DNA from: an uncultured Spirochaetota bacterium
GTDB lineage: Bacteria; Spirochaetota; Spirochaetia; SZUA-6; Fen-1364
DNA: 64,000 nt
Direction of reading: 5' to 3'
NCBI GenBank assembly: GCA_963845325.1
Contig: CAWJRT010000013.1
Coordinates: 128,614 to 192,613 of the forward strand
Below, piece by piece: positions 24,578 through 63,563 of this stretch. Both the position numbers and the translations under genes were made by a program. Within the stretch, counting starts at the first letter, position 1, and each line of letters starts with the position of its first letter. A model generated the notes under the pieces. The model ran no database searches and was not told the DNA's origin. It saw only the letters and a program-made list of their open reading frames with translations.

Positions 24578-27500
24578 GCCGATCGAGATGCAATGTCCTG
24601 ATCTGCACCGGCGGCGGCTGCGTGGCCTCCGGCGCCCTTGAGCTGAGCGCGGCCATGCGGGCCGCCATCAGAAGCACGGCCTGGAGGGCGAGGTGCAGGT
24701 GTTCGAGACCGGCTGCCTCGGCCCCTGCGCGGCGGGCCCGGTGGCCGTCGTCCATCCCGACGGGATCCTCTACCAGAATCTCAAGCCCGCCGACGCGGAG
24801 CGCATCGCCGAGGAGCACCTGCTGAAGGGCAGGATCGTCGAAGGAGCTCGCGTACGAGACAGCGTGCCGGAGAGCATGGAGGCGCTGGGCCTGCAGGAGA
24901 TCCCGTTCTTCCGCAAGCAGGTGAAGATCGTCCTGCGCAACTGCGGGCTCATCGATCCGCTGAAGATCGAGGAGTACATCGCCCGGGACGGCTACATGGC
25001 CCTGGCGAAGGTGCTCACCGAGATGACGCCCGAACAGGTGATCGATGAGGTGAAGAAGTCCGGCCTGCGCGGCAGGGGCGGCGCGGGATTCTCCACGGGC
25101 ATGAAGTGGGAGCTCTGCCGCAAGGCGCCGGGCACGGAGAAGTTCACGCTCTGCAACGCGGACGAGGGAGACCCGGGCGCGTTCATGGACAGGAGCGTGC
25201 TGGAAGGTGATCCGCACAGCCTCATCGAGGCCATGACCATCGCCGGCTACGCCATCGGCTCCTCGCAGGGATACGTCTACGTGCGCGCCGAGTACCCCCT
25301 GGCCGTGGAACGGCTCACCCGGCCATCGAGCACGCGCGCGAGCGCGGCCTGCTTGGCAAGAACATCATGGGCACCAGCCCACAGCTTCGACCTGGAGATC
25401 CGGATGGGGTCAGGCGCATTCGTCTGCGGAGAAGAGACGGCGCTCATGACCTCAATCGAGGGCAACCGGGGCGAGCCGCGGCCCCGGCCGCCCTTCCCCG
25501 CGTTCAAGGGGCTCTGGGGAAAGCCGAGCCTCCTGAACAACGTGGAGACCTATGCCGCGATCCCGGCGATCATCCTGAAAGGTTCCGGCTGGTACGCCTC
25601 CATGGGAACCGCGAAGAGCAAGGGCACGAAGGTGTTCGCCCTGGCCGGCGCCGTGAAGAACACGGGCCTCGTGGAGATCCCCATCGGCATGCCGCTGGGC
25701 GAGCTGGTCTTCGACATCGGCGGCGGAATGAGGGAAGGCAAGACCTTCAAGGCCGCGCAGATCGGCGGGACCATCGGGCGGCTGCATCCCGCGGCACCAC
25801 CTGAACGTGCCCGTGGACTACGAATCCCTCGCCGAGCTGGGCGCCATCATGGGCTCGGGCGGCCTCATCGTCATGGACGAGGACACCTGCATGGTGGACA
25901 TGTCCCGGTTCTTCCTCGAGTTCGTGCAGGACGAATCCTGCGGCAAGTGCACGCCCTGCCGGGTGGGCACGAAGCGGATGCTGGAAATCCTGGACCGCAT
26001 CTGCGAGGGCAGGGGGCAGGAGGGAGACATCGAGCGCCTGATCGACTCGGGCAACACGATCAAGGACACGGCCCTCTGCGGGCTCGGCCAGACAGCGCCC
26101 AACCCCGTCCTCTCTGCAATCCGCCATTTCCGCGAAGAGTTCGTCGAGCACATCAGGGACCACAAATGCCGCGCTGGGCGTGTGCCCCGAGCTGGTGCGC
26201 GCCCCGTGCCAGAACGCGTGCCCGGCGGGCGTGGACGTGCCGGGCTTCGTGAGCCTGATCGGGGAGAAGCGCTACGACGAGGCGCTGACCCTGCACCGGG
26301 AGAGGAACCCGCTCGCGGCAATCTGCTCCCGCGTGTGCTTCCATCCCTGCGAGAGCAAGTGCCGGCGTTCAACGCTGGACGATCCGCTTTCCATCAGGTC
26401 GCTGAAGCGCTTCATGGTGGAGCAGGAGAAAGAGTTCAACCTTCCGGCGATGACCCTGGACGGCGCCAACGCAAAGAGGAAGGTGGCCGTCGTGGGCGCG
26501 GGCCCCGCGGGACTTTCCTGCGCGTACTTCCTGGCGCGGCTGGGCTACCGGCCGACGGTTTTCGAGGCTGCCTCGGAGCCCGGCGGGATGCTCGTGCAGG
26601 CCATACCCGGCCTACCGGCTGCCGCGCGACATTCTGCGCCGCGAGATCGGCATGATCGAAAAGCTCGGCGTGAAGATCAAGACGAACAAGACGCTCGGCA
26701 GGGACTTCACCCTTTCGAGCATGAAGGAGATGGGCTTCGAGGCGGTGTTCGTCGCCGTTGGCGCGCCGAAGGGCGCCGGCCTGGGAATGAAAGGGGACGA
26801 GGCGGCGGGCGTGACGGAGGCCATCGACTTCCTGCGGCAGTACAACCTCACGGGCAAGGTGCCCGTGGGAAAGAACGTGGTCGTCGTGGGCGGCGGCAAT
26901 GCGGCAATCGACGCGGCGCGCACGGCAATTCGGCTGGGCGCTTCCTCCGTCACGGTGGCGTACCGTCGGACCCGCGCGGAGATGCCCGGCCTACATGGAA
27001 GAGGTGGAGGAGGCCGAGCGCGAGGGAGTGAAATTCCAGTTCCTCGTTTCGCCGATGGACCTCATGCACGAGAAGGGGAAGCTGGCGACGGTGAAAATGC
27101 GCCGCATGGGGCTGGGCGATTTCGACCGGACGGGCCGGCGCAAACCCGTGGCTGACCCGCAGAGCGACTTCGACATGCCGGGCAGACCAGCTCATCGCCG
27201 CGGTGGGCCAGGCGCTCGATGCCGAACGGATCTTCAACGGCGTATCGCTGAAGCTCAACGACCGTGAGTTCATTGCGGTGAACCCGGTGAACGGGCAGGC
27301 CTCCGAGGAATGGGTGTTTGCAGGAGGCGATGCGGTAAGCGGCCCCTCGTCTGTCATCGAAGCAATTGCCGCCGGAGAAAAGGCGGCGGCGGGGATGCAC
27401 GCTTTCCTCGCCGGCGCGGGCGACATCCCGTGGCGGTCCTCGAAGGTCGTGGACACTTTCTTCGATCCGGATGCCGACCCCGCGATGGGCGGGCGTCCCG

Positions 27501-27653: not shown

Positions 27654-29423
27654 ATGCCATCCCTGACCATAGACAACAAGACGATCAGCGTGACGGACGG
27701 AACGAGCCTGCTCGAGGCCGCCCGGCAGGCCGGCGTCCAGGTTCCCAGCCTCTGTTACCTGAAAAAGGTGCAGGCCATCGGCTCCTGCCGCGTATGCCTG
27801 GTGGAGGTGGAGGGCGCAAAGACCCTCACGGCCTCCTGCGTCACCCCTTGCTTCGAGGGCATGAAAGTGCACACCAACTCGGCGCGGGTCCGCACGGCCC
27901 GCAAGGCGGTCGTCGAGCTGATCCTCTCGGACCACGAGGGGGACTGCCAGACCTGCGACAGGAACGGCGATTGCGAGCTGCAGTCCGTTGCGCGCGACCT
28001 GGGCATCCGGGAGATCACCTACGCCGGCGGCAAGAGCGTCCGGCGCAAGGACACCAGCACCCCGGCCCTCGTGCGCGACACGGCCAAGTGCATCCTCTGC
28101 CGGAGATGCGTCACCGTCTGCGGCCAGACACAGGGCGTGGCCGCCATTTTCCCGCAGAAGCGCGGGTTCCAGTCCGTCATCGGGCCGGCCTTCGCTTCCG
28201 ACCTTGCGGACGTCGTGTGCGTGCAGTGCGGGCAGTGCGCCGCGGTGTGCCCCGTGGGAGCCATCGGAGAGAAGGACGAGGTCGCGAAGGTCTGGGCCGC
28301 CATCGACGACCCGACGAAGACCGTGCTTGTGCAGACCGCCCCGGCAATCCGTGCCGCGCTTGGGGAATGCTTCGGGTTCCCGCCGGGGACCCTGGTCACC
28401 GGGCAAGATGGTCACTGCCCTGCGGCTTATGGGGTTCGACAGGATCTTCGACACGAACTTCACCGCGGACCTCACCATCATGGAGGAAGGCACGGAGCTC
28501 TTGACCCGGCTGAAGAAGGCGCTCGTGGATGGTCAGCAGGTGCCTCTCCCCTTGTTCACCAGCTGCTCGCCGGGCTGGATCCGCTACGCGGAGCATTTCT
28601 ACCCTGAAATCCTCCCCAACATCTCCACGTGCAAGTCGCCTCAGCAGATGTTCGGCGCCATTGCCAAGACCTACTACGCGGAGAAGATCGGAAAGAAGCC
28701 GGAAGACATCTTCGTCGTTTCGGTGATGCCCTGCACGGCGAAAAAGTACGAATCCCAGCGTCCCGAAATGTATTCCAGCGGCGTGCGCGACGTCGATGTC
28801 GTCCTTACCACCCGGGAGCTCGGCCGCATGATCCGCGAGGCCGGCATCAACTTCCCGGGCTTCCGGACGGCCAGATGGACAGCATCCTCGGTGCCTCCTC
28901 GGGTGCCGCGGACATCTTTGCCAACACCGGCGGCGTCATGGAGGCGGCCCTGCGGACGGTGTACGAGATCGTTACCGGCCGCCAGCTGCCTTTCGACAAC
29001 CTGCACGTTGCTCCAGTGGCGGGGCTCGCGGGGGTCAAGGAAGCGGCGATCAAGATCGAGGGCACGGTGCGGGAATGGGCGTTCCTCGAAGGGGTCACCG
29101 TGAAGGTGGCCGTTGCCCATGGGCTGGGCAACGCGCGGCTCCTCATCGAGAGGATCAAGGCCGGTGAGCAATACCATTTCGTGGAAGTCATGACCTGCCC
29201 CGGAGGCTGCATCGGCGGCGGCGGCCAGCCGCGCGTCACGACGGACGAAGTGCGCCTTGCGCGCATCGCGGCCATCTACAAGGAGGACGAGGGCAAGTCC
29301 ATCCGCAAGTCCCACAACAACCCCGAGGTGGCGGCCATCTACGAGGAGTACCTCAAGAAGCCGCTCGGGGAGAAGTCGCACCACCTCCTGCACACGAAAT
29401 ACACAGCGCGGGAGAGGGTGTAG
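27654..29423 (+). CDS. hydA: [FeFe]-hydrogenase catalytic subunit (M3-type HydA), 2 apparent frameshifts
   Basis: 2Fe-2S domain, HEGDCQTCDRNGDC, CILCRRCVTVC and CVQCGQCAAVCP. H-cluster motifs FTSCSPGW (L1 variant), MPCTAKKYE (L2) and EVMTCPGGCIGGGGQP (L3). Pieces lie in ORFs 27570..28607, 27988..29103 and 28629..29423. AGAGGAGAAAGAA lies upstream of the ATG. Confidence 0.85.
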
Positions 29424-29450
29424 GACGGGAGACGGGACGCGGGGGCCGCA

Positions 29451-31601
29451 ATGGGCATAGTCTCGACGATTCCCGAGAAATGCAGGCGCTGCTACGCGTG
29501 CGTGCGCGAATGCCCGGTAAAGGCCATCAAGGTCATCGCCGGGCAGGCCACGGTCATCGAGGAGCAGTGCGTGGCGTGCGGGAACTGCGTCAAGGTCTGC
29601 ACGCAGAAGGCCAAGCGTATCGAGGATGCCACGATGCTGGTGGGCCGGCTGCTGGAGGGGGAACAGCACCGCCGGTGCCCAATCCGCCGGGTACGTCGGT
29701 GCGGAATCCGCCGGGTACGTCGGTGCCCAATCCGCCGGGTACGTCGGTGCGGTGTTTGCGATCCTTGCGCCGTCGTTCCCGGTCGCTTTTCCCGATGTGC
29801 CTCCTGGAAAGATCGTCGGTGCGCTGCGCAGCCTGGGGTTTGCCCAGGTGTGGGAGGTGGCCTTCGGCGCGGAGCTGGTGAGCCGCGAGTACGCCCGGCT
29901 TGCGCGCGAGGCCATCAGGGGCGGCCAGACCGTCGTGAGCACGCCCTGCCCGGCCATTGTCTCGTATGTGCAGAAATACCTGCCCCGGCTCCGGGGGTCG
30001 CTTGCCCGCGTGGTCTCTCCGATGATCGCCACGGCACGGGCGATCAAGGACAGGCACGGCGCGGGGGTGAGGATCGTCTTCATCGGCCCATGCATTGCAA
30101 AGAAGGCGGAGATCAAGGACCCGTTCGTGCAGGGGACCGTGGACGCGGTGCTCACCTACGAGGAGCTCCTCACGATGTTCGCGGCAGCCGGGATATCGCC
30201 ACAGGCGGAAGATGCCTGCGAGTTCGACGGGCCGTCGGCGTACCTGGGCCGGTCCATCCCGATTCCGGGCGGCCTCTTGAGGGCCGCGGGAATCGATTCG
30301 GACATACTCCAGAACAACGTGCTCGTTACCGAGGGCAAGGACAGGGTGCTGCCGGTGTTTCGCGAGCTCGCGGATGGGAAGAGCAAGGCACGAGTCCTGG
30401 ACGTGCTGTTCTGCGAAGGCTGCATCAACGGCCCGAAGATGACCAACGCCCTGAGCGTGTTCGCGCGCAAGGAGATGCTCACTGACCACATCAACGAGCT
30501 GAACGTGGCCATGGGCGGGCAGAACATCCAGGAAGCGCTCGGCGAGTTTGACCGGGTCGATCTCGCCGGGGATTCAGCGAGGATGCGGTGTTCCTTCCGC
30601 AGCCCACCGAAGGAGAGATTGCAGTGGCGCTTCGGAGGATGAGGAAGTTCGGCCCCGAGGATCAGCTGAACTGCGGATCCTGCGGCTATCCCTCCTGCCG
30701 CGACAAGGCAATTGCCGTGTGCCAGGGCTTTGCGGAGGTGAGCATGTGCCTGCCCTACCTCGTGGAGGAGCTGGAGGGGACTCTCTCCCTGACGCAGGAC
30801 AAGCTCGTTCAGACCGAGAGGCTTGCCTCCATGGGACAGATATCCGCGGGAGTTGCGCACGAGATCAACAATCCCCTGTCTACGATCCTCCTGTACTCGC
30901 ACATGCTGCTGAAGGCCCACCGCCAGGGCGATCCCGAGTCGGAAGACATCCAGATGATCGTTTCCGAGGCCGACAGGTGCCGCACGATCATGCGCGGCCT
31001 CCTGGACTTCGCGCGGCAGTCGCGTGTTGTCAAGACGCCCACGGACCTCGGCCGCCTGGTGCGTGAGCTGGCCGATGCCATGAACGTGAAGCTGGATCCC
31101 GCCGTGGTCCGCGTGCGCTGCGAGATTGCCCCGGGCCTGCCGCCGCTCATGCTGGACTCGGACCAGGTCCGCCAGATGCTGCTGAACTTCGTGCAGAACG
31201 GGATCGACGCCGTGGAGGACCGGGTTGCAGCGGACGCAGGCGGACCTGACGCCATCGGCCCTGAACGGAGCGGCCCCGGGGAGGTCGTGATCAGCGCGCT
31301 TCTCTCAACCTCGGCCGACATGCTGCACCTGCGCGTGAGCGACACCGGATCCGGCATGCCGCCCGAAGTCATCAAGGATATTTTCACGCCCTTCTATACC
31401 ACGAAGCAGCTTGGAAAGGGCACCGGAATGGGGTTGTCCATCGTGTACGGCGTGGTGAAAATGCACGCAGGGGACATTGCCGTGGACAGCGAGGTGGGCC
31501 GGGGGACGTCGTTCCTCGTGCGCATCCCCGTCGAACAGGGAGGTGAGCAATGGCGAGAACCGTTCTGCTGGTTGATGACGACGCGGATTTCGTGGAGATG
31601 A
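29451..31601 (+). CDS. HydS-like sensory [FeFe]-hydrogenase domain fused to a histidine kinase, 2 apparent frameshifts
   Basis: CRRCYACVRECP and CVACGNCVKVC. H-domain-like motifs STPCPAIV, GPCIAKKAE and FCEGCINGP. FeS domain NCGSCGYPSCRDKA. HisKA ISAGVAHEINNPLS. HATPase LLNFVQNGIDA, DTGSGMP, GTGMGLSIV. Frame changes are at the G5 run near 29656-29660 and near 30565. Confidence 0.8.
29679..29750 (+). repeat. tandem repeat, 3 x 24 nt, core AATCCGCCGGGTACGTCGG (inside the HydS-kinase gene)
   Basis: Units at 29679-29702, 29703-29726 and 29727-29750, each NN+AATCCGCCGGGTACGTCGGTGC (NN = CC, GG, CC). The gene reads them as QSAGYVGA, ESAGYVGA, QSAGYVGA. Removing them joins GCCGGTGC|GGTGTTTGCG, giving ...STAGAVFAILAPSF. 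Confidence 0.9.
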
Positions 31602-31983: not shown

Positions 31984-32388
31984 ATGCCTGCCCCCCTCGT
32001 CTACCTTGTCGATGACGACAGGGACTTTCTCGAAATGGAAGCGGCCATTCTTTCCGCCGGGGGCTACCGCACGAAGAGCTTTTCCGACGCGCGCGAGGCC
32101 CTTGCTGCACTCGCGTCGGCCGACGGGGAACAGCGGCCATCCCTCCTGGTGACCGACCTGATGATGAAGTCTCTCGATGCCGGCTTCACCTTCGCCCGTG
32201 CCGTCCGCTCCGATCCACGCCTGTCGGACATCCCGATCGTCATCGTCTCCGCGGTGGCAAGCCAGAAGGGATTCGACTTCCGGCCGCGAACGGCGGATGA
32301 CCTTGCCGCGATGAACGCCGAGGCCTTCTTCGACAAGCCCGTCCCGCCGGCAGCGTTCCTGGCAAAGGTGAAGGAGCTCGCGCCGTGA
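31984..32388 (+). CDS. stand-alone response-regulator receiver (CheY-like)
   Basis: MPAPLVYLVDDDRDFLEM...SLLVTDLMMKSLDAG...PIVIVSA...FDKP. No output domain. GTGA overlap with the next gene. Confidence 0.85.
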   Translation: MPAPLVYLVDDDRDFLEMEAAILSAGGYRTKSFSDAREALAALASADGEQRPSLLVTDLMMKSLDAGFTFARAVRSDPRLSDIPIVIVSAVASQKGFDFRPRTADDLAAMNAEAFFDKPVPPAAFLAKVKELAP

Positions 32389-33965
32389 TCCAGCCAGCGG
32401 CGCCAAATCCGCCGGGTACGTCGGCGCAGAATCCGCCGGGTACGTCGGCACAGAATCCGCCGGGTACGTCGGCGCCAAATCCGCCGGGTACGTCGGCGCG
32501 CATCCTCGTGGTTGACGACGAGCTGGGCGTGCGTGAAGGCTGCCGCAAGATCCTCGCTGCCGAGGGCTACGATGTGCTCACCGCCGGCGACGGCAAGGCC
32601 GGGCTCGAGCAGCTGATCGAGCGCGGGCCTTTCGCCGTCCTGCTGGTTGACCTGCAGATGCCCCGGATGTCCGGCCTGGAGCTGATCCAGGAGGCCAGGA
32701 GCCGGGACTCCGACATCGTACCCATCATCATCACCGCCCACGCAACGCTGGACACAGCCGTGGAGGGGACACGGCAGGGAGCTTACAGCTACATCCCCAA
32801 GCCGTTCACCCCGGACGAGCTGCTGCTGGCCATCAAGAACGGACTGGAGAAAAGGGCACTGTCCATCGAGGCGCGTCGGCTCCGCGAGGAGCGGGAAAAA
32901 CGCCTTCTGGAGGTCGCCTCCGAGCGCTCGCGGAGCAACACGATCATCTCGGCGATGACGGACGGGATCCTCGTGATCAACATGGAGAAGCTGGTGGTGC
33001 TGCGCAACAACGCGGCAGCCCGCATTCTTCCTGACTGCGCCCACCGGCCCATCCCGTTCCCGCTGGAGGAGATCGAGAGCCCCGACGTTCGCGAGATCGT
33101 GAATATCGTCATCGACTCTCCCGGCGGCTTCATGATCCTCTCCCGCCAGATCCCCCTGGGAGAGTTCACCTACATGGTGAACGTCAGCCCGATCATCGAG
33201 CCCGGCGGGGAAACATCCGGGGCCGTCGCCGTGTTCAGCGACGTCACGGAGCTGAAGAAGCTGGACACGGCGAAATCCATGTTCGTCTCCCTGGTTGCGC
33301 ACGAGGTCAAGAGCCCGCTCGCCGCCACGGAGGGGTGGCTCAATCTCGTGCTCAGCGGAATGCTGAAGACGAACCCGGCGGAAGAGCGTCACATGCTGGA
33401 ACGGGCTCTGCTGCGCGTGAGGACCCTTCGCGGTATGGTGAACGAGCTGATCAGCCTCACGGCGATCCAGACGGGCAATTTTTCCCTGAAAAGGGCGCCC
33501 GTGGTGGTGGCGGAAGTCGTGGAAGAAGTCGTGGCTGCCGGGCAGGGAAAAGGCGGAGGAGCATCGCATTTCAGTGGAAGTCACCGATTGCGCGCCCGGC
33601 ACGCGCGTGCTTGCCGACCGTGACGCCCTGTCCATGATCTGCTCCAACCTGGTGGAGAACGCGGTCAAGTACACGCGGGACGGAGGGCATGTGGTTGTGC
33701 GCATGTGCCGCGAAGGGATGTACGTGACCGTGGCGGTGAAGGATGACGGAATCGGGATGTCCGACGGAGGACGCCGCGCAGGATCTTTGAGGAGTTCTAC
33801 CGGGCCAGAAACGAGCAGACCGCCAGCATCCCCGGCACGGGCCTGGGCCTCAGCCTTGTGAAGCGGCTCACAGAGCTGCACGAAGGAACGGTGAGCGTCT
33901 CCTCCCTGTTCGGGGCGGGCAGCGAGTTTATTGTAAAACTTCCGCTGATCGAGCCGCAGGGCTGA
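32385..33965 (+). CDS. hybrid receiver-PAS-histidine kinase, 2 apparent frameshifts
   Basis: GTG start, then the repeat-encoded PNPPGTSA-type octapeptides. Then RILVVDDELGV...VLLVDLQMPRMSG...PIIITAH...PKPF, a PAS-like segment, H-box SMFVSLVAHEVKSPLAA, LVENAVKYT, DDGIGM and GTGLGLSLVKRL. Ends at TGA 33965. Confidence 0.8.
32404..32499 (+). repeat. tandem repeat, 4 x 24 nt, same core AATCCGCCGGGTACGTCGG (codons 7-38 of the receiver-kinase gene)
   Basis: Units NN+AATCCGCCGGGTACGTCGGCGC (NN = CA, AG, AG, CA; unit 2 ends GGCAC). Read as PNPPGTSA, QNPPGTSA, QNPPGTSA, PNPPGTSA. Removal restores GTG ATC CAG CCA GCG GCG CGC ATC CTC GTG GTT GAC GAC. Confidence 0.9.
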
Positions 33966-33976
33966 TCCGGCCGAAC

Positions 33977-39140: not shown

Positions 39141-40754
39141 CTATTCCGCCATTGCTGCACCGCGCGCGGCGCCCGCCTTGCCCTTCTTCAGGAAGAAGGC
39201 GGGAACGATTGCGGCCACGGTGATGATCGCGCTGATGATGAACACGTCGTCGATGGCGTTGACGAACGCCGTTTTTGCCGCCATCCCGTTGAGAAACGCG
39301 AGCGCCGTGCCGCGTCCCTTGGCGCCTCCCCCCATCAGGGCCCCGGCATGGGCCAGGGCGGCCATTGCCGCGGGGTTCGCCGGAGTGACGGTCCAGGCAA
39401 GCCAATCCCCGTGAAGGGCCTGGCGGGTGGTGAGAACCGTGGTGAGCACGGCAATGCCAAAGGAGCTGGACACCCTCTGGATGATGTTCGTGATCGAGGA
39501 AGCCCTGCCGATGAGCGCGGTGGGAATCTCCACCATTGCGGCCGTCTGGGCCGGCATCATTGCCAGGGGCATGGTGATCCCGCGCAGCACCGTCCACAGG
39601 ATGATCGTCGAGGTGGCGGTGGCGAGGTTCAGGTAGTGGAAGAGCCAGGTGATGAACATCAGGAGGACGATACCGGTCAGCGCGAGCGGCCGGGGGCCGA
39701 CCTTGTCAAAGAGCCTGCCCGACAACGGGCATCATCAGCCCCGAGACGAGCGCGCCGGGCATCATCAACAGTCCCGTCTCCATGGCTCCCAGGCCGCGGA
39801 AGGTCTGCAGGAACAGCGGCAGGAAGAAGAGCCCGGAGAACATGACGATGTTCGTCACGATGACCATGAGGTTGGCCATGGTGAAGGACCGGTACTTGAA
39901 CACCCGCAGGTCAAGGAGGGGATTTTCCGAGGTGAGCTCGAGGTAGATGAAGAGCACGAAGAGGAAAAAGCTCACCGACGAAGAGGAGAACCGTCGGCTC
40001 CGCACCCCATCCCCAGTCGGCGCCCTTCGTGAGGGCGAGAAGGAGGCAGAACAAACCGCCTGCGGAAGTCAGGCCTCCCGCGATGTCCAGCTTGCCCGGG
40101 TGCTTGGACTGGAACTCGGGCAGCACGAAGAGGGACAGGAGGATGCCGATCGACGCCGACGGGCAGGTTGATGGTGAAGATCCAGCGCCAGTCGACGTAC
40201 TCCACCAGGTAGCCGCCCAGCGTGGGGCCGATGGCCGGGGCCACGAGGATGGCGATGCCGAAAATGCCCATCGCGCTGCCGAACTGTTTTCGGGGGACCA
40301 TGCGGAACATCATGGCCATGGTCGTCGGCATGATCATTCCTCCGCCCACCGCCTGGATGACCCGGGCGAAGACGAGTGAGTTGAAGCTCCAGGCGAGGCT
40401 GCAGAACATCGAGCCCACGACGAACACGCCCATGGACAGGATGTACAGTCGCTTGAAGCCGATCCTGTCTCCCAGCCAGCCCGAGAAGGGGACGACGACG
40501 CCGAGGGCGAGCATGTAGATCGTGCTCACCCACTGCACCTCGGAGGTGCCGACGTTGAACACGTTCATGATCGTGGGGATGGCCACGTTCACGATGCTGG
40601 TGTCCAGGATGGACATGAAAGCGCCGATGAGGGCCACAAGGACCGGGGCGATCCAGTGGGACATGGGCCGCTCGGCGACCTCCTCCCCGTGGCCGGCCGC
40701 CTGGAAAGGCACGGGTATCGGGGCGCCCGGCTTGGCGCCATCCTGCTCACTCAT
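39141..40754 (-). CDS. MFS DHA2-family (EmrB/QacA-like) efflux pump, paralogue 2, 3 apparent frameshifts
   Basis: MSEQDGAKPGAPIPVPFQAAGHGEE...MSHWIAPVLVALIGAFMSILDTSIVNVAIP... It is colinear with, and highly similar to, the intact paralogue at 41276..42877. Pieces lie in ORFs 39972..40781, 39911..40126, 39706..40005 and 39141..39725. Confidence 0.8.
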
Positions 40755-41275: not shown

Positions 41276-42877
41276 CTATTCGACCGCCGCTGCGGCGCGC
41301 GACTTGCCTCGTTTGAGGAAGAAGGCGGGGATGACGGCGACGACCGTTATGAGAGCGGTGATGAGGAAGACGTCGTCAATGGCGTTCACGAAGCCTGTCT
41401 TGGCCGCCATCCCCTGGAGAAACGCGAGCGCCATGCCGCGGCCCTTCGCGCCTCCCCCCATCAAGGAGCCCGCGTGGGCAAGGGCACTCATGGCCGCGGG
41501 GTTCGCCGCGTTGACGGTCCACGCAAGCCATTGTCCGTGGAGCACCTGCCGCGTGGTGAGCACCGAGGTGAGCACCGCGATCCCGAAGGAGCCGGCCACC
41601 CTCCCGATGATGTTCGTAAGGGCCGAGGCCCGGCCGACGAGCTGGGTAGGGATCTCCACCAGGGCAGCGGTCTGCGCCGGCATGTTGGCAAGGGGCATGA
41701 CGAACCCGCGCAGCATCGTCCACAGAATGATCGTCATCGTGGCGGTGGCGAGGTTGAGATAGTGGAACAGCCAGGACACGAAGATCAGCATGAGAATGCC
41801 CGCAATCGCGAGGGGCCGGGGGCCGATCTTGTCGAAGAGCCTGCCCTGGATGGGCATGATGAGCCCTGATATGAGCGCGCCGGGCATCATCAGGAGGCCC
41901 GTCTCCATGGCCCCAAGGCCACGGAAGGTCTGCAGGAAAAGCGGCAGGAAAAAGATCCCGGAGAACATGACCATATTCGTCACGAAGACCATGAGGTTCG
42001 CCATCGCGAAGGATCTGTACTTGAAGACGCGCAGCTCGAGAAGCGGGTTTGCCGCAGTGAGCTCGAGGAAGATGAACAGCACGAAGGCGAAGAAGCTCAC
42101 GACGAAGAGAAGAACTGTCTGTTCTGCATTCCATCCCCAGTCGGCGCCCTTGCTGAGGGCGAGCAGGAGGCAGAACAACGCCGCGGCAGAAGTGACGCCA
42201 CCGGCGATATCCAGCCGTCCCGGATGCTTTGACTGGAACTCCGGCAGCACGAAGAGGGCCAGGAGAATGCCGATGACCCCCACCGGCAGGTTGATCGTGA
42301 AGATCCAGCGCCAGTCGACGTACTCCACCAGGTAGCCGCCCAGCGTGGGGCCGATGGCCGGGGCCACCATGAGAGCGATGCCAAGAATGCCCATGGCGCT
42401 CCCTACCTGGGTCTTGGGGACCATGCGGAAGATCATCGCCATGGTAGTCGGCATGATCATTCCTCCGCCCACCGCCTGGATGACCCGGGCGACTACCAGC
42501 GAGTTCAGGTCCCACGAGAGACTGCAGAACATGGAGCCAACAACGAACGCGCCCATGGCCAGGATGTACAGTCGCTTGAAGCCGAGTCTGTCCCCCAGCC
42601 ATCCCGAGAAGGGAACGACCACGCCCAGAGCGAGCATGTAGATCGTGCTCACCCACTGCACGTCGGAAGTTCCGACGTTGAACACGTTCATGATCGTGGG
42701 GATGGCCACATTCACGATGCTGGAGTCCAGGATGGACATGAACGCACCGATGAGCGCGACAGAGACCGGCGCGATCCAGTGGGACATGGGCCGCTCGTCA
42801 GGCTCTTCTCCATGGCCGGCCGCCCGGAAAGGCGCGGATGTCGGGGCGCCCGGCTGGGCGCCTGCCTGCTCACTCAT
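41276..42877 (-). CDS. MFS DHA2-family (EmrB/QacA-like) efflux pump, paralogue 1
   Basis: Intact 533 aa with 14-TM-type organisation and the motif GWLGDRLGFKR. Confidence 0.85.
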   Translation of the reverse strand: MSEQAGAQPGAPTSAPFRAAGHGEEPDERPMSHWIAPVSVALIGAFMSILDSSIVNVAIPTIMNVFNVGTSDVQWVSTIYMLALGVVVPFSGWLGDRLGFKRLYILAMGAFVVGSMFCSLSWDLNSLVVARVIQAVGGGMIMPTTMAMIFRMVPKTQVGSAMGILGIALMVAPAIGPTLGGYLVEYVDWRWIFTINLPVGVIGILLALFVLPEFQSKHPGRLDIAGGVTSAAALFCLLLALSKGADWGWNAEQTVLLFVVSFFAFVLFIFLELTAANPLLELRVFKYRSFAMANLMVFVTNMVMFSGIFFLPLFLQTFRGLGAMETGLLMMPGALISGLIMPIQGRLFDKIGPRPLAIAGILMLIFVSWLFHYLNLATATMTIILWTMLRGFVMPLANMPAQTAALVEIPTQLVGRASALTNIIGRVAGSFGIAVLTSVLTTRQVLHGQWLAWTVNAANPAAMSALAHAGSLMGGGAKGRGMALAFLQGMAAKTGFVNAIDDVFLITALITVVAVIPAFFLKRGKSRAAAAVE

Positions 42878-42923
42878 TGCACTCTCTCTTCCTGCTCGAA
42901 ACGGGGCTCCCCAGAGCTGTTCA

Positions 42924-42972
42924 TTCGAAACAGCAATATTCGATATAATAATATTCGTTTCCGTTTAGTCAA
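42924..42972 (-). promoter_or_regulatory. promoter/operator copy B (upstream of pump 1)
   Basis: Reverse strand reads TTGACT (42972-42967), 16-17 nt, TATTAT/ATTATA (about 42950-42944), overlapping CGAATATT-N7-CGAATATT. It is a duplicate of the marR upstream region. Confidence 0.55.
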
Positions 42973-60215: not shown

Positions 60216-60912
60216 TGTCCTTCTCCTTGATTTGTCCTGATGCAGCGCCCGGGCCCTCGCACCCGCACATCGCCGCGGTGTTCCGTTGCCGCCGCAGCCG
60301 GGCAACTGTGATTCGGGGCGCGACTCAAAAGTAGCGAAAAAAGGCCGGGAAGTAAAGGCGGTTTCCCTTGATCATGCTCTCTCTCCTTCTATAATAGCGG
60401 CATGGTGCGTCGTGAAAGCCGCATCGTTCCAGCGGATGAGAGTTCCGCCCGGGTAAGCGCCGGAGCGCCCGGTAGCAGGGTCCAGTCAGGGGGAGGAATC
60501 CTTCGGACCGAGCGGACCGACAAAAGCCTCCAAGGAGGAAGCAACACAGCGGGCCGCAACGCGAGTGAACGCCGAGCAAGCCTCGTCAGATTATCAGCCG
60601 AAAGGTGCTCAGGGTGGCCGAGCCGATCATGCCGCGGCGAAGGCAATAGACAGCTTTCCGAGACCGGAGAGGAAGCTGGACACTCTCGGGGTAATGGCGG
60701 CGGCACGTTGTGAAGGAACGGTGGGGAACACGAGAGACCCTCCCTGGCAGCCCCCGTCGGGCAAAGACCACGCGCATAAGGGACAGACCGAAAGCGTGAG
60801 GAGCCAGGAGGGAGTCCGAGGGGTTCGTAGTACCTGTGAAGGCGGTGAGAAACCGCTGGAGGGAAGGGACCCTGCTTTGAGTGAGCTGGAGCGTGGAGGT
60901 AAGCGCGAGGGC

Positions 60913-61705
60913 ATGGTCGGAAGACCCAACAACCCCGAGGGGGGAAGCCCAGAAGAGAAAGTGCGAAAACTTCAGCGACAGCTATGGACATGTGCCAAGC
61001 GGAGCAGGAGCCGACGTTTTCACGCGCTGTACGACCGGATCTGGCGGAGTGACGTCCTGCTGGAAGCGTGGAAACGAGTGAAGGCGAACGGAGGTGCCGC
61101 GGGAGTGGACGAGGTGTCCATCGGCGACATCGAAGAACGTGGGGCGGGAGAGTATCTGAAAGAGATACAGAGCGTCCTGAAGGCAGGCAGGTATCGACCG
61201 TCACCGGTGAGACGGAGGTACATCCCCAAGGGGGACGGGAAGCAGAGGCCACTGGGGATACCGACGGTGAGGGATCGCGTGGTGCAGATGGCGACCAAGC
61301 TAGTGATCGAGCCGCTCTTTGAGGCGGACTTTCAGCCGTGCAGCTGGGGGTTTCGGCCGAGAAGGAGCGCGACGCAGGCGATGGAAGTCATCCGCGAGGC
61401 AGGCAACCATGGACACAACGTGGTGCTGGACGCCGACATACGGGACTACTTCGGAAGCATCGACCATGGCAAGCTCATGGTGTTGGTGAAGGAGCGAGTT
61501 TCGGACAGGCGCGTACTGAAACTGATCGGCCAGTGGCTGGCGGCAGGGGTGATGGAAGACGGGACGGTGAGGGAGACACTTGCGGGCACTCCGCAGGGTG
61601 GAGTGATCTCGCCGTTATTGTCCAACATCTATCTTGGCTACCTTGATCGCATCTGGGAGAGCAGGTGCGCACACCTGGGAACTCTGGTGCGGTACGCTGA
61701 CGACG
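60913..61705 (+). CDS. group II intron 1 reverse transcriptase/maturase, 5' segment (up to the YADD codons)
   Basis: MVGRPNN...LLEAWKRVKANGGAAGVDEV (RT0), YIPKGDGKQRPLGIPTVRDRVVQ (RT1-2), VLDADIRDYFGSIDH (RT3), GTPQGGVISPLLSNIYL (RT4), LVRYADD (RT5). The frame then enters intron 2. Confidence 0.8.
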
Positions 61706-63563
61706 GTGCGCCACGCGCGCACTTGAATATAGAGTGCGGTGCTGTACAAGAGATGAGGGAGGGCCCCTCGAAGCCGATGTACAGGCGTAGGCTTCAAACC
61801 GCCCCAAGCTGCGTTGGTTAAGAGCCAAGGTAGTGAGCGTTGGGGAAAAGGCACGGCGAAAGGATCGTGTCAGGTAAGGATCAAGGAGACGAACGTGAGT
61901 GAACCACTGAGAAAGTGTCGAAAGCGTAGGAACGACGTCAAAACCGGGAAGGAGTCGTTAGCCCGGGATAAGTCCAGAAGGTGACCTGTGTACTGTCTGG
62001 GTGGCGTCCGGCATAGAGGTGGCGTGACCTTGGTTCAGGCTTTTGTACGGAACGTGGGAACCTGTTGCCCTGATGGTAAGGGAGAAACCCAAGTGGAGGA
62101 CCCACGAGGGTGAGAGTACCGATGCGGGGCGCAGGGGCGGAATGGCCCGTAGTAGCGAGGAAGTTCCTGTAATGGGAGTGGAGCGAAGGGGCCATATTGT
62201 CCAGCTTTGCAAGATGGTCAACCGAAAGGGAGGAGCCGTTGAGTGAAGCGAAGCCGTTTGGTATTTCCAAACGCAACGTGTGGGAAGCCTGGCTACGAGT
62301 GAAGGCGAACAAAGGAGCTGAAGGTGTAGACGGAGAGACGATTGAAGAGTTTGAGAGGGACGTGAAGAACAACCTCTACAAGCTGTGGAACAGGATGTCC
62401 TCGGGCAGCTATTTTCCGCCGCCCGTGCGGACGGTAGAAATACCGAAAAGCAACGGGGGTGTGAGGAAGCTGGGAATACCGACTGTATCGGACCGAGTGG
62501 CCCAAATGGTGGCAAAGATGAATCTTGAACCATTGGTGGAGCCCTCGTTTCATGCGGACTCATATGGGTATCGACCGGGCAAGTCGGCGGGACAAGCGGT
62601 AGGAACGGCCCGAGAAAGGTGTTGGCGCTACGACTGGGTGATTGATCTGGACATCAAAGGCTTCTTTGACAACATCGATCACACACTCCTTATGAAAGCG
62701 GTGCGAAAACATACCGACAGCAAATGGATCCTGCTGTATGTGGAGCGATGGCTGAAGGCACCAGCCCAACTGGAAGATGGAACCTTGGTCGGAAGAGACA
62801 AGGGCACGCCACAGGGCGGGGTGATAAGCCCGTTACTCGCGAATCTGTTCCTGCACTATGCATTCGATGCATGGATGCGGAGAAACCATCCAAACGTGCC
62901 GTTCGAACGGTACGCGGACGATAGTATCGTGCACTGTGTGAGTGAAGAACAGGCGCAGCAGATGAAGAGGGTGATTGGGGAGCGATTAGCTGAATGCAAG
63001 CTGGAACTTCATCCTGAGAAGACAAAGATTGTCTACTGCAAGGATGCAGACAGGAGAGGGAACTACCCGAACGAGAGATTTGACTTTCTGGGCTTCACAT
63101 TTCGGCCGCGGAGGTCAAAGAATCGGTGGGGGAAGTTCTTTATCAATTTCAGTCCTGCAGTCAGTGACAAAGCGACCAAAGCGATGCAGCGAACAATGAG
63201 GAGCTGGACATTACAACGGCGAAGCGACAAATCATTGGACGACCTGTCCCGAATGTTCAATCCGATCCTTCGGGGCTGGATTACCTACTATGGACAGTAC
63301 TACAAGTCAGCACTTTACCCGACGTTCGTGAACCTGAATCGCATTTTAGTGAGGTGGGCGATGAGGAAATACAAGAAGGTGCGGAGGCATGCCAGAAGGG
63401 CGATGCACTGGCTGGGACGGATAGCCCGTCAAAGACCAGAGATGTTTGGCCACTGGCAGATGGGTCTCCTGCCGACGGTTGGGCGATAAGAGCCGGATGA
63501 ATCGAGAGATTCACGTCCGGTTCCGTGAGGGCGTGGGGGTGAGAATCCCCCGCGCTACTCGAC
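61706..63563 (+). mobile_element. group II intron 2 (inner, complete, 1858 nt) inserted in the RT ORF of intron 1
   Basis: 5' GTGCGCC at 61706. An RT ORF starts 533 nt downstream. Domain V GAGCCGGATGAATCGAGAGATTCACGTCCGGTTC is at 63490-63523. The 3' end ...CTACTCGAC is at 63563. Excision fuses TAC GCT GAC GAC G|TC GTG ATA CTG TGC, giving YADDVVILC. Confidence 0.8.
62239..63489 (+). CDS. group II intron 2 reverse transcriptase/maturase (no endonuclease domain seen)
   Basis: TTG at 62239 lies 4 nt after GGGAGGAG (the ORF track starts at TTG 62197). VWEAWLRVKANKGAEGVDGE, IPKSNGGVRKLGIPTVSDRVAQ, DLDIKGFFDNIDH, GTPQGGVISPLLANLFL, RYADDSIVHC, and domain X ILRGWITYYGQYY. Confidence 0.85.
   Translation: MSEAKPFGISKRNVWEAWLRVKANKGAEGVDGETIEEFERDVKNNLYKLWNRMSSGSYFPPPVRTVEIPKSNGGVRKLGIPTVSDRVAQMVAKMNLEPLVEPSFHADSYGYRPGKSAGQAVGTARERCWRYDWVIDLDIKGFFDNIDHTLLMKAVRKHTDSKWILLYVERWLKAPAQLEDGTLVGRDKGTPQGGVISPLLANLFLHYAFDAWMRRNHPNVPFERYADDSIVHCVSEEQAQQMKRVIGERLAECKLELHPEKTKIVYCKDADRRGNYPNERFDFLGFTFRPRRSKNRWGKFFINFSPAVSDKATKAMQRTMRSWTLQRRSDKSLDDLSRMFNPILRGWITYYGQYYKSALYPTFVNLNRILVRWAMRKYKKVRRHARRAMHWLGRIARQRPEMFGHWQMGLLPTVGR

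Follow-up and report, generated by a model that had tools for sequence, protein, structure and literature searches.

Short tandem arrays in two signalling genes of an uncultured Spirochaetota bacterium probably belong to a lineage-specific family of very short dispersed repeats

Why should two nearby signalling genes of one bacterium each carry tandem copies of the same short sequence, read in different frames? The question is raised by a 64,000-nt stretch of DNA from an uncultured Spirochaetota bacterium (assembly GCA_963845325.1, contig CAWJRT010000013.1, positions 128,614 to 192,613 of the forward strand; hereafter the window), in which the 19-mer AATCCGCCGGGTACGTCGG is repeated at two sites. 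Array 1 lies between the Fer4 and H-cluster domains of a HydS-like sensory hydrogenase-kinase, about 2.7 kb upstream of array 2, which occupies the 5' end of a receiver-histidine kinase gene (Table 1). An earlier reading of this sequence (the original prediction) had proposed a variable-number or contingency-like locus tuning an H2-sensing relay, a short insertion element with a target preference, or repeated binding sites for a DNA- or RNA-binding factor. This work indicates that each of the two is probably a local array within a family of very short repeats that is lineage-specific and dispersed; the arrays are at the same time variable-number tandem repeats and are filtered by selection. 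They are probably not a purpose-built tuning device for hydrogen sensing, and their link to it is probably incidental.

Within the window, exact and mismatch-tolerant searches confirmed that seven identical 19-mers lie at two sites and nowhere else. Perfect matches to AATCCGCCGGGTACGTCGG were all on the plus strand (starting at 32406, 32430, 32454, 32478, 29681, 29705 and 29729), none was found with one to three mismatches, and dinucleotide shuffles gave a chance expectation of 0.01 matches on average. A search for the 22-mer with up to six substitutions elsewhere in the window likewise returned nothing above control. Both arrays were assigned a period of 24 nt by TRF (Tandem Repeats Finder), with 4.2 and 3.2 copies, 92% matches and a head-to-tail arrangement. 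In array 2, each unit consists of a 2-nt spacer (CA, AG, AG and CA in turn) and a 22-nt element, namely AATCCGCCGGGTACGTCGG followed by CGC, CAC, CGC and CGC; unit coordinates, spacers and the preceding GGCGC were found in the sequence exactly as first described.

The same element was then sought beyond the window by an exact scan for the 19-mer in one genome per species (185,579 species). It was retrieved at 50 loci, 41 of them from 11 metagenome-assembled genomes (MAGs) labelled Spirochaetota, Spirochaetia or Spirochaetaceae and originating from peat, fen and soil (SPRUCE peat, fen_1364/fen_1365, MFD, binchicken and MGr1A1B1C). The other nine matches, in other phyla, comprise one copy each without the 3' extension; by our own estimate, they are about as many as chance would produce when a 19-mer is sought in 596 Gb. 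In the MAG loci, related metagenome loci and the window, the trinucleotide after the 19-mer was CGC in 61 units, TGC in 17 and CGA in 13; since one of these three nearly always follows, the conserved element is 22 nt long, AATCCGCCGGGTACGTCGGCGC, and a site-specific spacer of 2-4 nt brings it to periods of 24 to 26 nt. At up to three mismatches, 59 sites with 106 units were counted in the window and in the spirochaete and related metagenome loci, 57 of the sites lying outside the window. Copies are single or form arrays of up to five units, all head-to-tail, and longer arrays probably exist, since several (L002, L016, L029, L038 and L041) end contigs or adjoin gaps. Each MAG contains only about 1-12 loci with the exact core. 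No match to the element was found among viral contigs and none to Rfam families at the arrays, while a chimeric four-frame query against a 5.8-billion protein set, where short repeats score poorly, gave two matches at E <= 0.001. Two proteins encoded in the window had no match in look-ups by exact sequence.

Sites of this family are clustered. At least two independent sites were present in 10 of the 41 8-kb loci, so that two arrays 2.7 kb apart correspond to the usual pattern of the family. The most extreme clustering observed concerned a gene for an Lhr-like helicase (L035, 3628-7922, minus strand), which carries the element at four separate places (three in sense and one in antisense orientation), one of them an array of five units.

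In this clade of high-GC Spirochaetota from peat and wetlands, the genomic contexts of the copies show that the element is a DNA-level entity rather than a protein motif. It indeed occurs in both orientations, between and within genes, and in four of the six reading frames. With stop-free spans of high GC3 taken as a proxy for genes, the approximate counts of sites in convincing open reading frames (ORFs), near-edge and orthologous sites included, were about 15 for the sense frame SAGYVGA, about 9 for the sense frame NPPGTSA, about 9 for the antisense frame ADVPGGF and 3 for the antisense frame APTYPAD. The two arginine-rich frames, IRRVRRR and RRRTRRI, accounted for none, being met only at ORF edges or in doubtful calls; were frames random, their absence among about 30 internal sites would have a probability of (2/3)^30, which is very unlikely. 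Host genes are unrelated to one another (the Lhr-like helicase, an FlhF-type GTPase, a methyltransferase, HydS and kinases); NPPGTSA units are C-terminal in the GTPase, and ADVPGGF units are N-terminal in the methyltransferase. Intergenic copies are located right after stop codons (L034/L038 and L011), right before start codons or ribosome-binding sites (L025, L044 and L054), or beside promoter-like sequence (L003, L021 and L030). In line with a coding filter, intervals of 24 nt (n = 37) and 27 nt (n = 1) were found in coding DNA, and the arrays with intervals of 25 nt (n = 4) or 26 nt (n = 2) are exactly those without a convincing spanning ORF. This pattern is as expected for a DNA-level repeat that lands anywhere, selection removing the harmful cases. 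The original prediction had counted many further copies at random, frame-disrupting positions as evidence against itself; many copies do lie at unrelated positions, but those within genes do not disrupt the frame. It should be noted that a subfamily, AATCCGCGGGGTACCGCGG (L026 3201; L045 3394-3440), has a 27-nt period, a 6-bp stem and a 4-nt loop (z = -2.3), with the in-frame antisense reading AAVPRGL.

Unit number was variable between relatives, so the proposal of a variable-number tandem repeat holds for the family. At the HydS site, L010 and L051 have 200-nt flanks that are 100% identical and differ by 48 nt, that is, by two units. Orthologous arrays elsewhere comprise four units in L008 versus one in L047, two in L039 versus one in L035, and at least three in L038 versus one in L034. 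For array 2, a second sample of its own lineage was not retrieved, and the orthologues are without the array. Spacers are uniform within an array and different between orthologous arrays (L026 versus L045), which points to turnover within arrays. A weak trend in polarity, the perfect unit being right-most in about 12 arrays versus 5, was biased by the choice of loci and was not used.

Whole sites also differ between relatives. The HydS site lacks the element in six outgroup loci and in two in-group loci: its conserved motifs are separated by 54 nt in the outgroup and in L037, and by 51 nt in L041. It is filled in L048 (+72 nt, three units), L010 (+111 nt), L051 (+135 nt) and the window, which has three units and a partial one. 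A 53-nt insertion in L025 that is missing from L050 is made up of one full unit between two partial ones, with 9 further bases, and some 30 extra nt before the ribosome-binding site in L054 are missing from eight orthologues. Degenerate, internally deleted units were found in the kinase loop of L037, L048 and L051. The same loop (about 31220-31290 in the window) carries in L041 an unrelated 30-nt in-frame tandem repeat (GCCGGGGAAGAAAAGGCCGCCTCCGGC...), and it seems to accept insertions repeatedly. In a long variant of the unit, the internal GTAC is the insertion point of a 26-30-nt piece (GGGAGTACCCGTTCGG...), which has GTAC on each side and can face either way (L010/L051, L011, L025, L035 and L036); this variant folds better than shuffled sequences (z = -2.8), and the insert may be a second, nested mini-element. 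In L052 (3990-4030, corresponding to window 29653 to 31503), 1.85 kb comprising the H-cluster and kinase parts of HydS are gone, and the junction TCCCCCGGGTACGTCGGCACG fuses a remnant of the element to the kinase C-terminus, as if the deletion had been array-mediated. Neighbour-joining trees for the two sides of the HydS array site (window 28430-29640 and 29770-30490) conflict with regard to L041, L037, L048, L010 and L051: the window clusters with L041 and L052 upstream, and with L010/L051 downstream. Such a conflict indicates recombination at or near the HydS array, which moved alleles between lineages.

What, then, do the arrays do to the two genes of the window? The receiver-kinase ORF begins at GTG 32385, within the stop codon of the upstream receiver gene (GTGA) and with AAGGAG 8 nt upstream, and it reads VIQPAA-PNPPGTSA-QNPPGTSA-QNPPGTSA-PNPPGTSA-RILVVDDE, in agreement with the codon position and the four peptides of the original prediction. 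Judged from this reading frame, array 2 would most likely extend the protein, before the receiver domain, by an N-terminal tail of 32 residues that is tolerated, and it is most likely translated, since it lies downstream of a conserved start codon: an ATGA or GTGA start-stop overlap upstream of the tail is retained in most close orthologues. Pfam domains were assigned to residues 40-150 (Response_reg) and 296-364 (HisKA), and the HATPase part is in other frames, with single-base indels near 33540, 33763 and 33783.

The receiver-kinase was compared in 80 metagenome loci encoding relatives. Array 2 is missing in more than ten orthologues (L037, L048, L051-L056, L058-L061 and L076), and its four perfect units are particular to the lineage of the window, which suggests that it is probably recent. 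N-termini are short in the outgroup (MSEEPV-RILVVDDE or MSDPV-RILVVDDE), and close relatives, with 80-93% amino-acid identity, have mutually different tails of 6-42 residues, none of which carries a copy of the element. The L052 protein (93% identity) reads MSEPAAASAQGAGAAPAPHA, a P/S/A-rich stretch of 48 nt occupies the position of array 2 in L037 and L048, and the codons of relatives that match positions 32399-32403 are GGCGGCG or GGCGTCG. The same tail in L056 (about 2430-2565) holds other short tandem repeats, including 15-nt units, GGAATCTGTGGGCGC, that resemble the 24-nt unit minus 9 nt.

Array 1 is a less simple case. Both arrays had been said to preserve the reading frame; this is correct for array 2 as it stands, but for array 1 it holds only through comparison with orthologues and not in the window as given. 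Fer4 is read in the frame of 29451, and the H-cluster domain together with array 1 (AQSAGYVGA...) in the frame of 29626 (+1). In the orthologues L048, L010 and L051, by contrast, Fer4, an array of KSAGYVGx units and the H-cluster domain share one continuous frame. Since these orthologues are in one frame and excision of the 72 nt of array 1 leaves the two frames of the window unjoined, we infer that the break would be due to a single-base indel between about 29650 and 29680. With one G fewer in the GGGGG run, the sequence becomes ...LLEGNSTAGAQSAGYVGA... and the HydS frame is restored. Peptides predicted across array junctions include AAPNPPGTSAQNPPGTSA and EHKSAGYVGDK.

This break is not isolated. 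HydA, HydS and the receiver-kinase are each broken over several frames in the window, and nucleotide alignment with L041 and L052 located single-base indels near 27182, 28400, 28866 and 30573, in addition to the three in the receiver-kinase gene. Three of the indels of the window are in a CCGGGC context, which suggests that they may be systematic long-read errors, possibly methylation-linked; real pseudogenes appear less likely.

Table 1. Positions of the two arrays, their host genes and adjoining features in the window.
Feature	Position	Strand	Reading or remark
Array 1, three 24-nt units (TGC tails; CC/GG/CC spacers)	29679..29750	+	QSAGYVGA/ESAGYVGA
CGCCGGTGC, partial unit at the left edge of array 1	29670..29678	+	matches the unit minus GTACGTCGG
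GGGGG run	29657..29661	+	likely position of the single-base indel (putative)
HydS-like gene (Fer4, Fe_hyd_lg_C, FeS, HisKA, HATPase_c), host of array 1	29451..31601	+	split over three frames in the window
Array 2, four 24-nt units	32404..32499	+	PNPPGTSA/QNPPGTSA, four peptides in the receiver-kinase ORF
Units of array 2	32404-32427, 32428-32451, 32452-32475, 32476-32499	+	
GGCGC abutting array 2 on the left	32399..32403	+	same letters as the 3' end of the element; in effect a partial unit
Receiver-histidine kinase gene, host of array 2	32385..33970	+	
Small stand-alone receiver gene	31984..32388	+	stop codon overlaps the start of the array-2 gene

The window also holds other features. Group II intron domains were detected with Rfam, namely two sets of D1-D4 (60430-60564 and 61755-61875) and one domain V/VI (63488-63563), together with two reverse-transcriptase ORFs, one at 60565-61821 with a partial RVT_1 domain (profile positions 1-155 of 205) and one at 62197-63489 with RVT_1 and GIIM; the region 60430-63563 could be one intron inside another or two adjacent copies. 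A duplicated segment (39166-40451 and 41292-42574, offset by 2.12 kb) contains blocks that are 80-87% identical, and the ORF at 41276-42964, in its second copy, encodes an MFS transporter.

From a mechanistic point of view, units would be gained and lost within arrays by slipped-strand mispairing or unequal exchange, a mode which the 48-nt step between L010 and L051 fits. New sites would arise as array segments are copied to nearby positions, either by template switching or repair at GC-rich microhomology (for example GGCG/GTCGG) or by a trans-acting enzyme. Within genes, selection would then keep periods in multiples of 3, frames that give small peptides rich in G, P, S, T, A and Y, and arrays situated in linkers, loops or termini. 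Several features would favour template switching or repair for the new sites. Arrays begin and end anywhere within the unit and are bordered by partial units on either side (for example the 53-nt insertion of L025 and the arrays in L007, L022 and L035). There is no fixed target duplication: 5-nt direct repeats flank some single copies (CCACG at L050/L025), and most sites, L048, L047 and L014 among them, have none, so that target-site duplication was rejected as a general rule. Sites are clustered, and empty targets already hold GGCG-type motifs, namely GGCGAGC at the HydS site and GGCGGCG at the receiver-kinase site.

Some observations weigh against a family of dispersed repeats spread in this way. 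Neither an enzyme that would mobilise the element, nor defined ends, nor a consistent target-site duplication came to light, which is why the creation of new sites is something we only infer. The core of 19-22 nt is identical between species whose flanks differ by 10-25%, an identity inflated by the fetching of loci for the exact 19-mer, and this could reflect selection on the DNA or RNA sequence. Both arrays of the window belong to one signalling operon; local clustering accounts for this, without being proof of it. Recombination, revealed by the conflict between the upstream and downstream trees, precludes counting insertions at the HydS site from a tree, so the pattern of presence and absence there gives no number of insertion events. 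Finally, translation of the arrays is a prediction from their sequence.

It is possible, although rather unlikely, that the copies are instead those of a miniature element mobilised in trans, an enzyme, a templating RNA or single-stranded DNA (ssDNA) recognising the 22-mer and inserting it beside GGYGC-like targets; self-targeting of its own 3' end would then build the tandem arrays. Of 56 sites, 19 (34%) indeed have GG[CT]G[CA] no more than 8 nt upstream of their first unit, an eight-fold enrichment over the 4% of random positions, and 11 have GTCGGCGC, versus 0.8% of random positions. The 3' end of the element recreates this motif, and much of the upstream signal comes from partial or degenerate units at array left edges. 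Perfect copies beside decaying ones in all 11 species suggest a conserved source, the nested second insertion is placed precisely at GTAC, with CCGG|GTAC as a recurrent breakpoint, and sister lineages are filled or empty at exactly the same HydS position. The window also contains the reverse transcriptases described above, though nothing ties them to the element. The arbitrary phases of array edges, with partial units on both sides, are however unexpected for such an element, as are the absence of terminal inverted repeats at its copies and of a consistent target-site duplication. No transposase or HUH gene lies near any copy in the 8-kb loci inspected, and the strong local clustering fits copying in cis. 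Nor does structure single out the unit: its hairpin (5-6-bp stem, 5-7-nt loop, -5.9 kcal/mol) is no better than that of shuffled sequences (z = -0.2). When the unit, the two arrays and the start-codon region were folded as DNA and as RNA, z values ranged from -0.07 to -1.6, which support no claim of structure, and only the long variant and AATCCGCGGGGTACCGCGG surpassed shuffles. The suggested RNA pairing CGCCG-N7-CGGCG is thus no more stable than shuffled sequence. Of the GGYGC-preferring insertion element first put forward, the filled and empty orthologous sites and the enrichment of the motif stand, whereas the motif is not a rule and target-site duplication is not consistent. A still more specific form, in which an active and as yet undescribed insertion system produces the 22-mer (an enzyme with a conserved RNA or ssDNA template might, for instance, write it next to GGYGC-like sites, its own 3' end included), appears doubtful to us. 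If true, such a system would build in-frame peptide linkers across a clade of uncultured Spirochaetota, and it would account for the perfect and decaying copies, the recurrent breakpoint and the difference between sister lineages at one position.

Another explanation, which we regard as improbable, is that of a functional variable linker, the number of units being selected since it adjusts the domain spacing of HydS or the N-terminal tail of the receiver-kinase in the H2-sensing relay. The location of two arrays in adjacent genes of one relay would be in line with this, as would the unit count at the HydS linker site, which varies from 3 to 5.6 units in four lineages, and the hypervariable receiver-kinase tail (6-42 residues), with its own 15-nt repeats in L056. 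The same element is nevertheless found between genes, in antisense orientation and in unrelated host genes; no array fills the HydS site of L037 and L041, two close relatives, most of HydS is gone from L052, with a remnant of the element at the 1.85-kb junction, and the orthologues without array 2 exceed ten. Expression switching is impossible with a 24-nt unit. For these reasons, namely a unit that cannot switch the frame, copies in unrelated genes and between genes, and orthologues that lack array 2, the contingency-like tuning of the relay was not upheld.

Also improbable are iteron-like or regulatory arrays to which a DNA- or RNA-binding factor would bind, the nucleotide sequence being what is selected and the peptides a by-product. 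A conserved core with a short variable spacer, repeated in tandem, resembles iterons. The 19-22-nt sequence is retained whatever the frame or strand, its variable positions display no codon periodicity, and some copies are found just upstream of starts or beside promoter-like sequence (L003, L021, L025, L030, L044 and L054). Most copies, however, lie deep inside genes of unrelated function, many are decaying, close relatives are devoid of the sites, neither dyad symmetry, stable structure nor an Rfam family was found, and the apparent conservation is inflated by the choice of loci. As for an artefact of sequencing or assembly (error-prone long reads might, for instance, yield a spurious tandem duplication), the many single-base indels of the window relative to orthologues, several at CCGGGC, might call it to mind, but it can practically be dismissed, the same element and type of array being present in independent assemblies of several projects, including contigs with short-read-style names (NODE_, k141), and the HydS-site arrays being in frame in independent assemblies.

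A lineage-specific family of very short dispersed repeats, the reading we prefer, can finally be compared with known systems, the closest kinds being the cyanobacterial small dispersed repeats (SDRs) and then the in-frame repetitive extragenic palindromes (REPs) and Rickettsia palindromic elements (RPEs). Elhai and colleagues reportedly described SDR1-8 of Nostocaceae in 2008 as mobile-looking sequences of 21-27 nt, with tandem, intragenic and nested copies. To our knowledge, dispersed, site-gaining elements of 22-24 nt have been described in detail only in that family. Sizes are thus alike (reportedly 21-27 nt for SDRs, 22-24 nt here), and in both cases copies are dispersed over unrelated sites, tandem, intragenic and nested (here a 22-nt element with periods of 24-27 nt), differ in presence between related genomes, recombination confounding the HydS case here, and have no known enzyme. 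In the passages that deal with them, SDRs of Nostocaceae are called "very small mobile repeated elements" (cited in PMC3116915, PMC5861425, PMC4390886), are placed in Nostocaceae only (PMC5861425), and SDR5 is said to insert precisely within HIP1 (PMC4390886). By contrast, the present element belongs to Spirochaetota and has a seemingly unrelated sequence, SDRs being compared by description only; as to a target comparable to HIP1 for SDR5, GGYGC is enriched upstream (34% of sites) and no invariant sequence was found. The element also displays a clear coding filter, with four of the six frames in use and, within genes, periods divisible by 3.

Residence in frame within unrelated proteins is shared with REPs and RPEs, and the unit has a CGTC next to a short palindrome. 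The first-described Rickettsia RPEs are longer, at 100-150 bp. REPs, including CGTC-tagged REPs, and Rickettsia RPE-4 and RPE-6 are short repeats that ORFs of unrelated proteins can contain in full, often at either terminus and with no evident functional constraint (Di Nocera et al. 2013, PMC3733652). CGTC repeats, which have no associated transposase and were reported in Spirochaetes, have an unpaired terminal CGTC, stems of 8-9 bp starting with AT pairs, loops of 4-5 nt and a CCA tail, and mostly form head-to-head dimers (PMC3733652). Here, by contrast, a 5-bp stem with a 7-nt loop is no more stable than shuffled sequences, and copies are head-to-tail rather than head-to-head dimers.

One family at many loci, in head-to-tail arrays whose unit number depends on the strain, is also a description of mycobacterial interspersed repetitive units (MIRUs), from which the present unit differs by its 24 nt, its location mostly inside genes, its several frames and its two orientations. 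MIRUs are 40-100 bp long and found in intergenic regions of operons. Contingency loci resemble the arrays in having tandem units of variable number at the 5' end of a gene, but they were rejected, since a 24-nt unit (8 codons) keeps the frame and lies downstream of a conserved start rather than in a promoter spacer. Miniature inverted-repeat transposable elements were rejected as well, there being no terminal inverted repeats and only inconsistent flanking direct repeats, and so were PARCEL repeats, a protein-level domain of 25 residues (PMC2996958). For the window itself, the conclusion is a negative one: its arrays are not to be taken for a designed H2-sensing regulator. On a practical level, arrays of the family end contigs or adjoin gaps in several assemblies, and the remnant in L052 marks the 1.85-kb deletion in HydS. 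Next to the SDRs of Nostocaceae, a second, unrelated case in Spirochaetota would suggest that the phenomenon is general, and its unusually clean frame filter, combined with copy-number variation inside enzymes and sensors, would make it a tractable model of selfish or neutral repeats that add linkers and tails to proteins.

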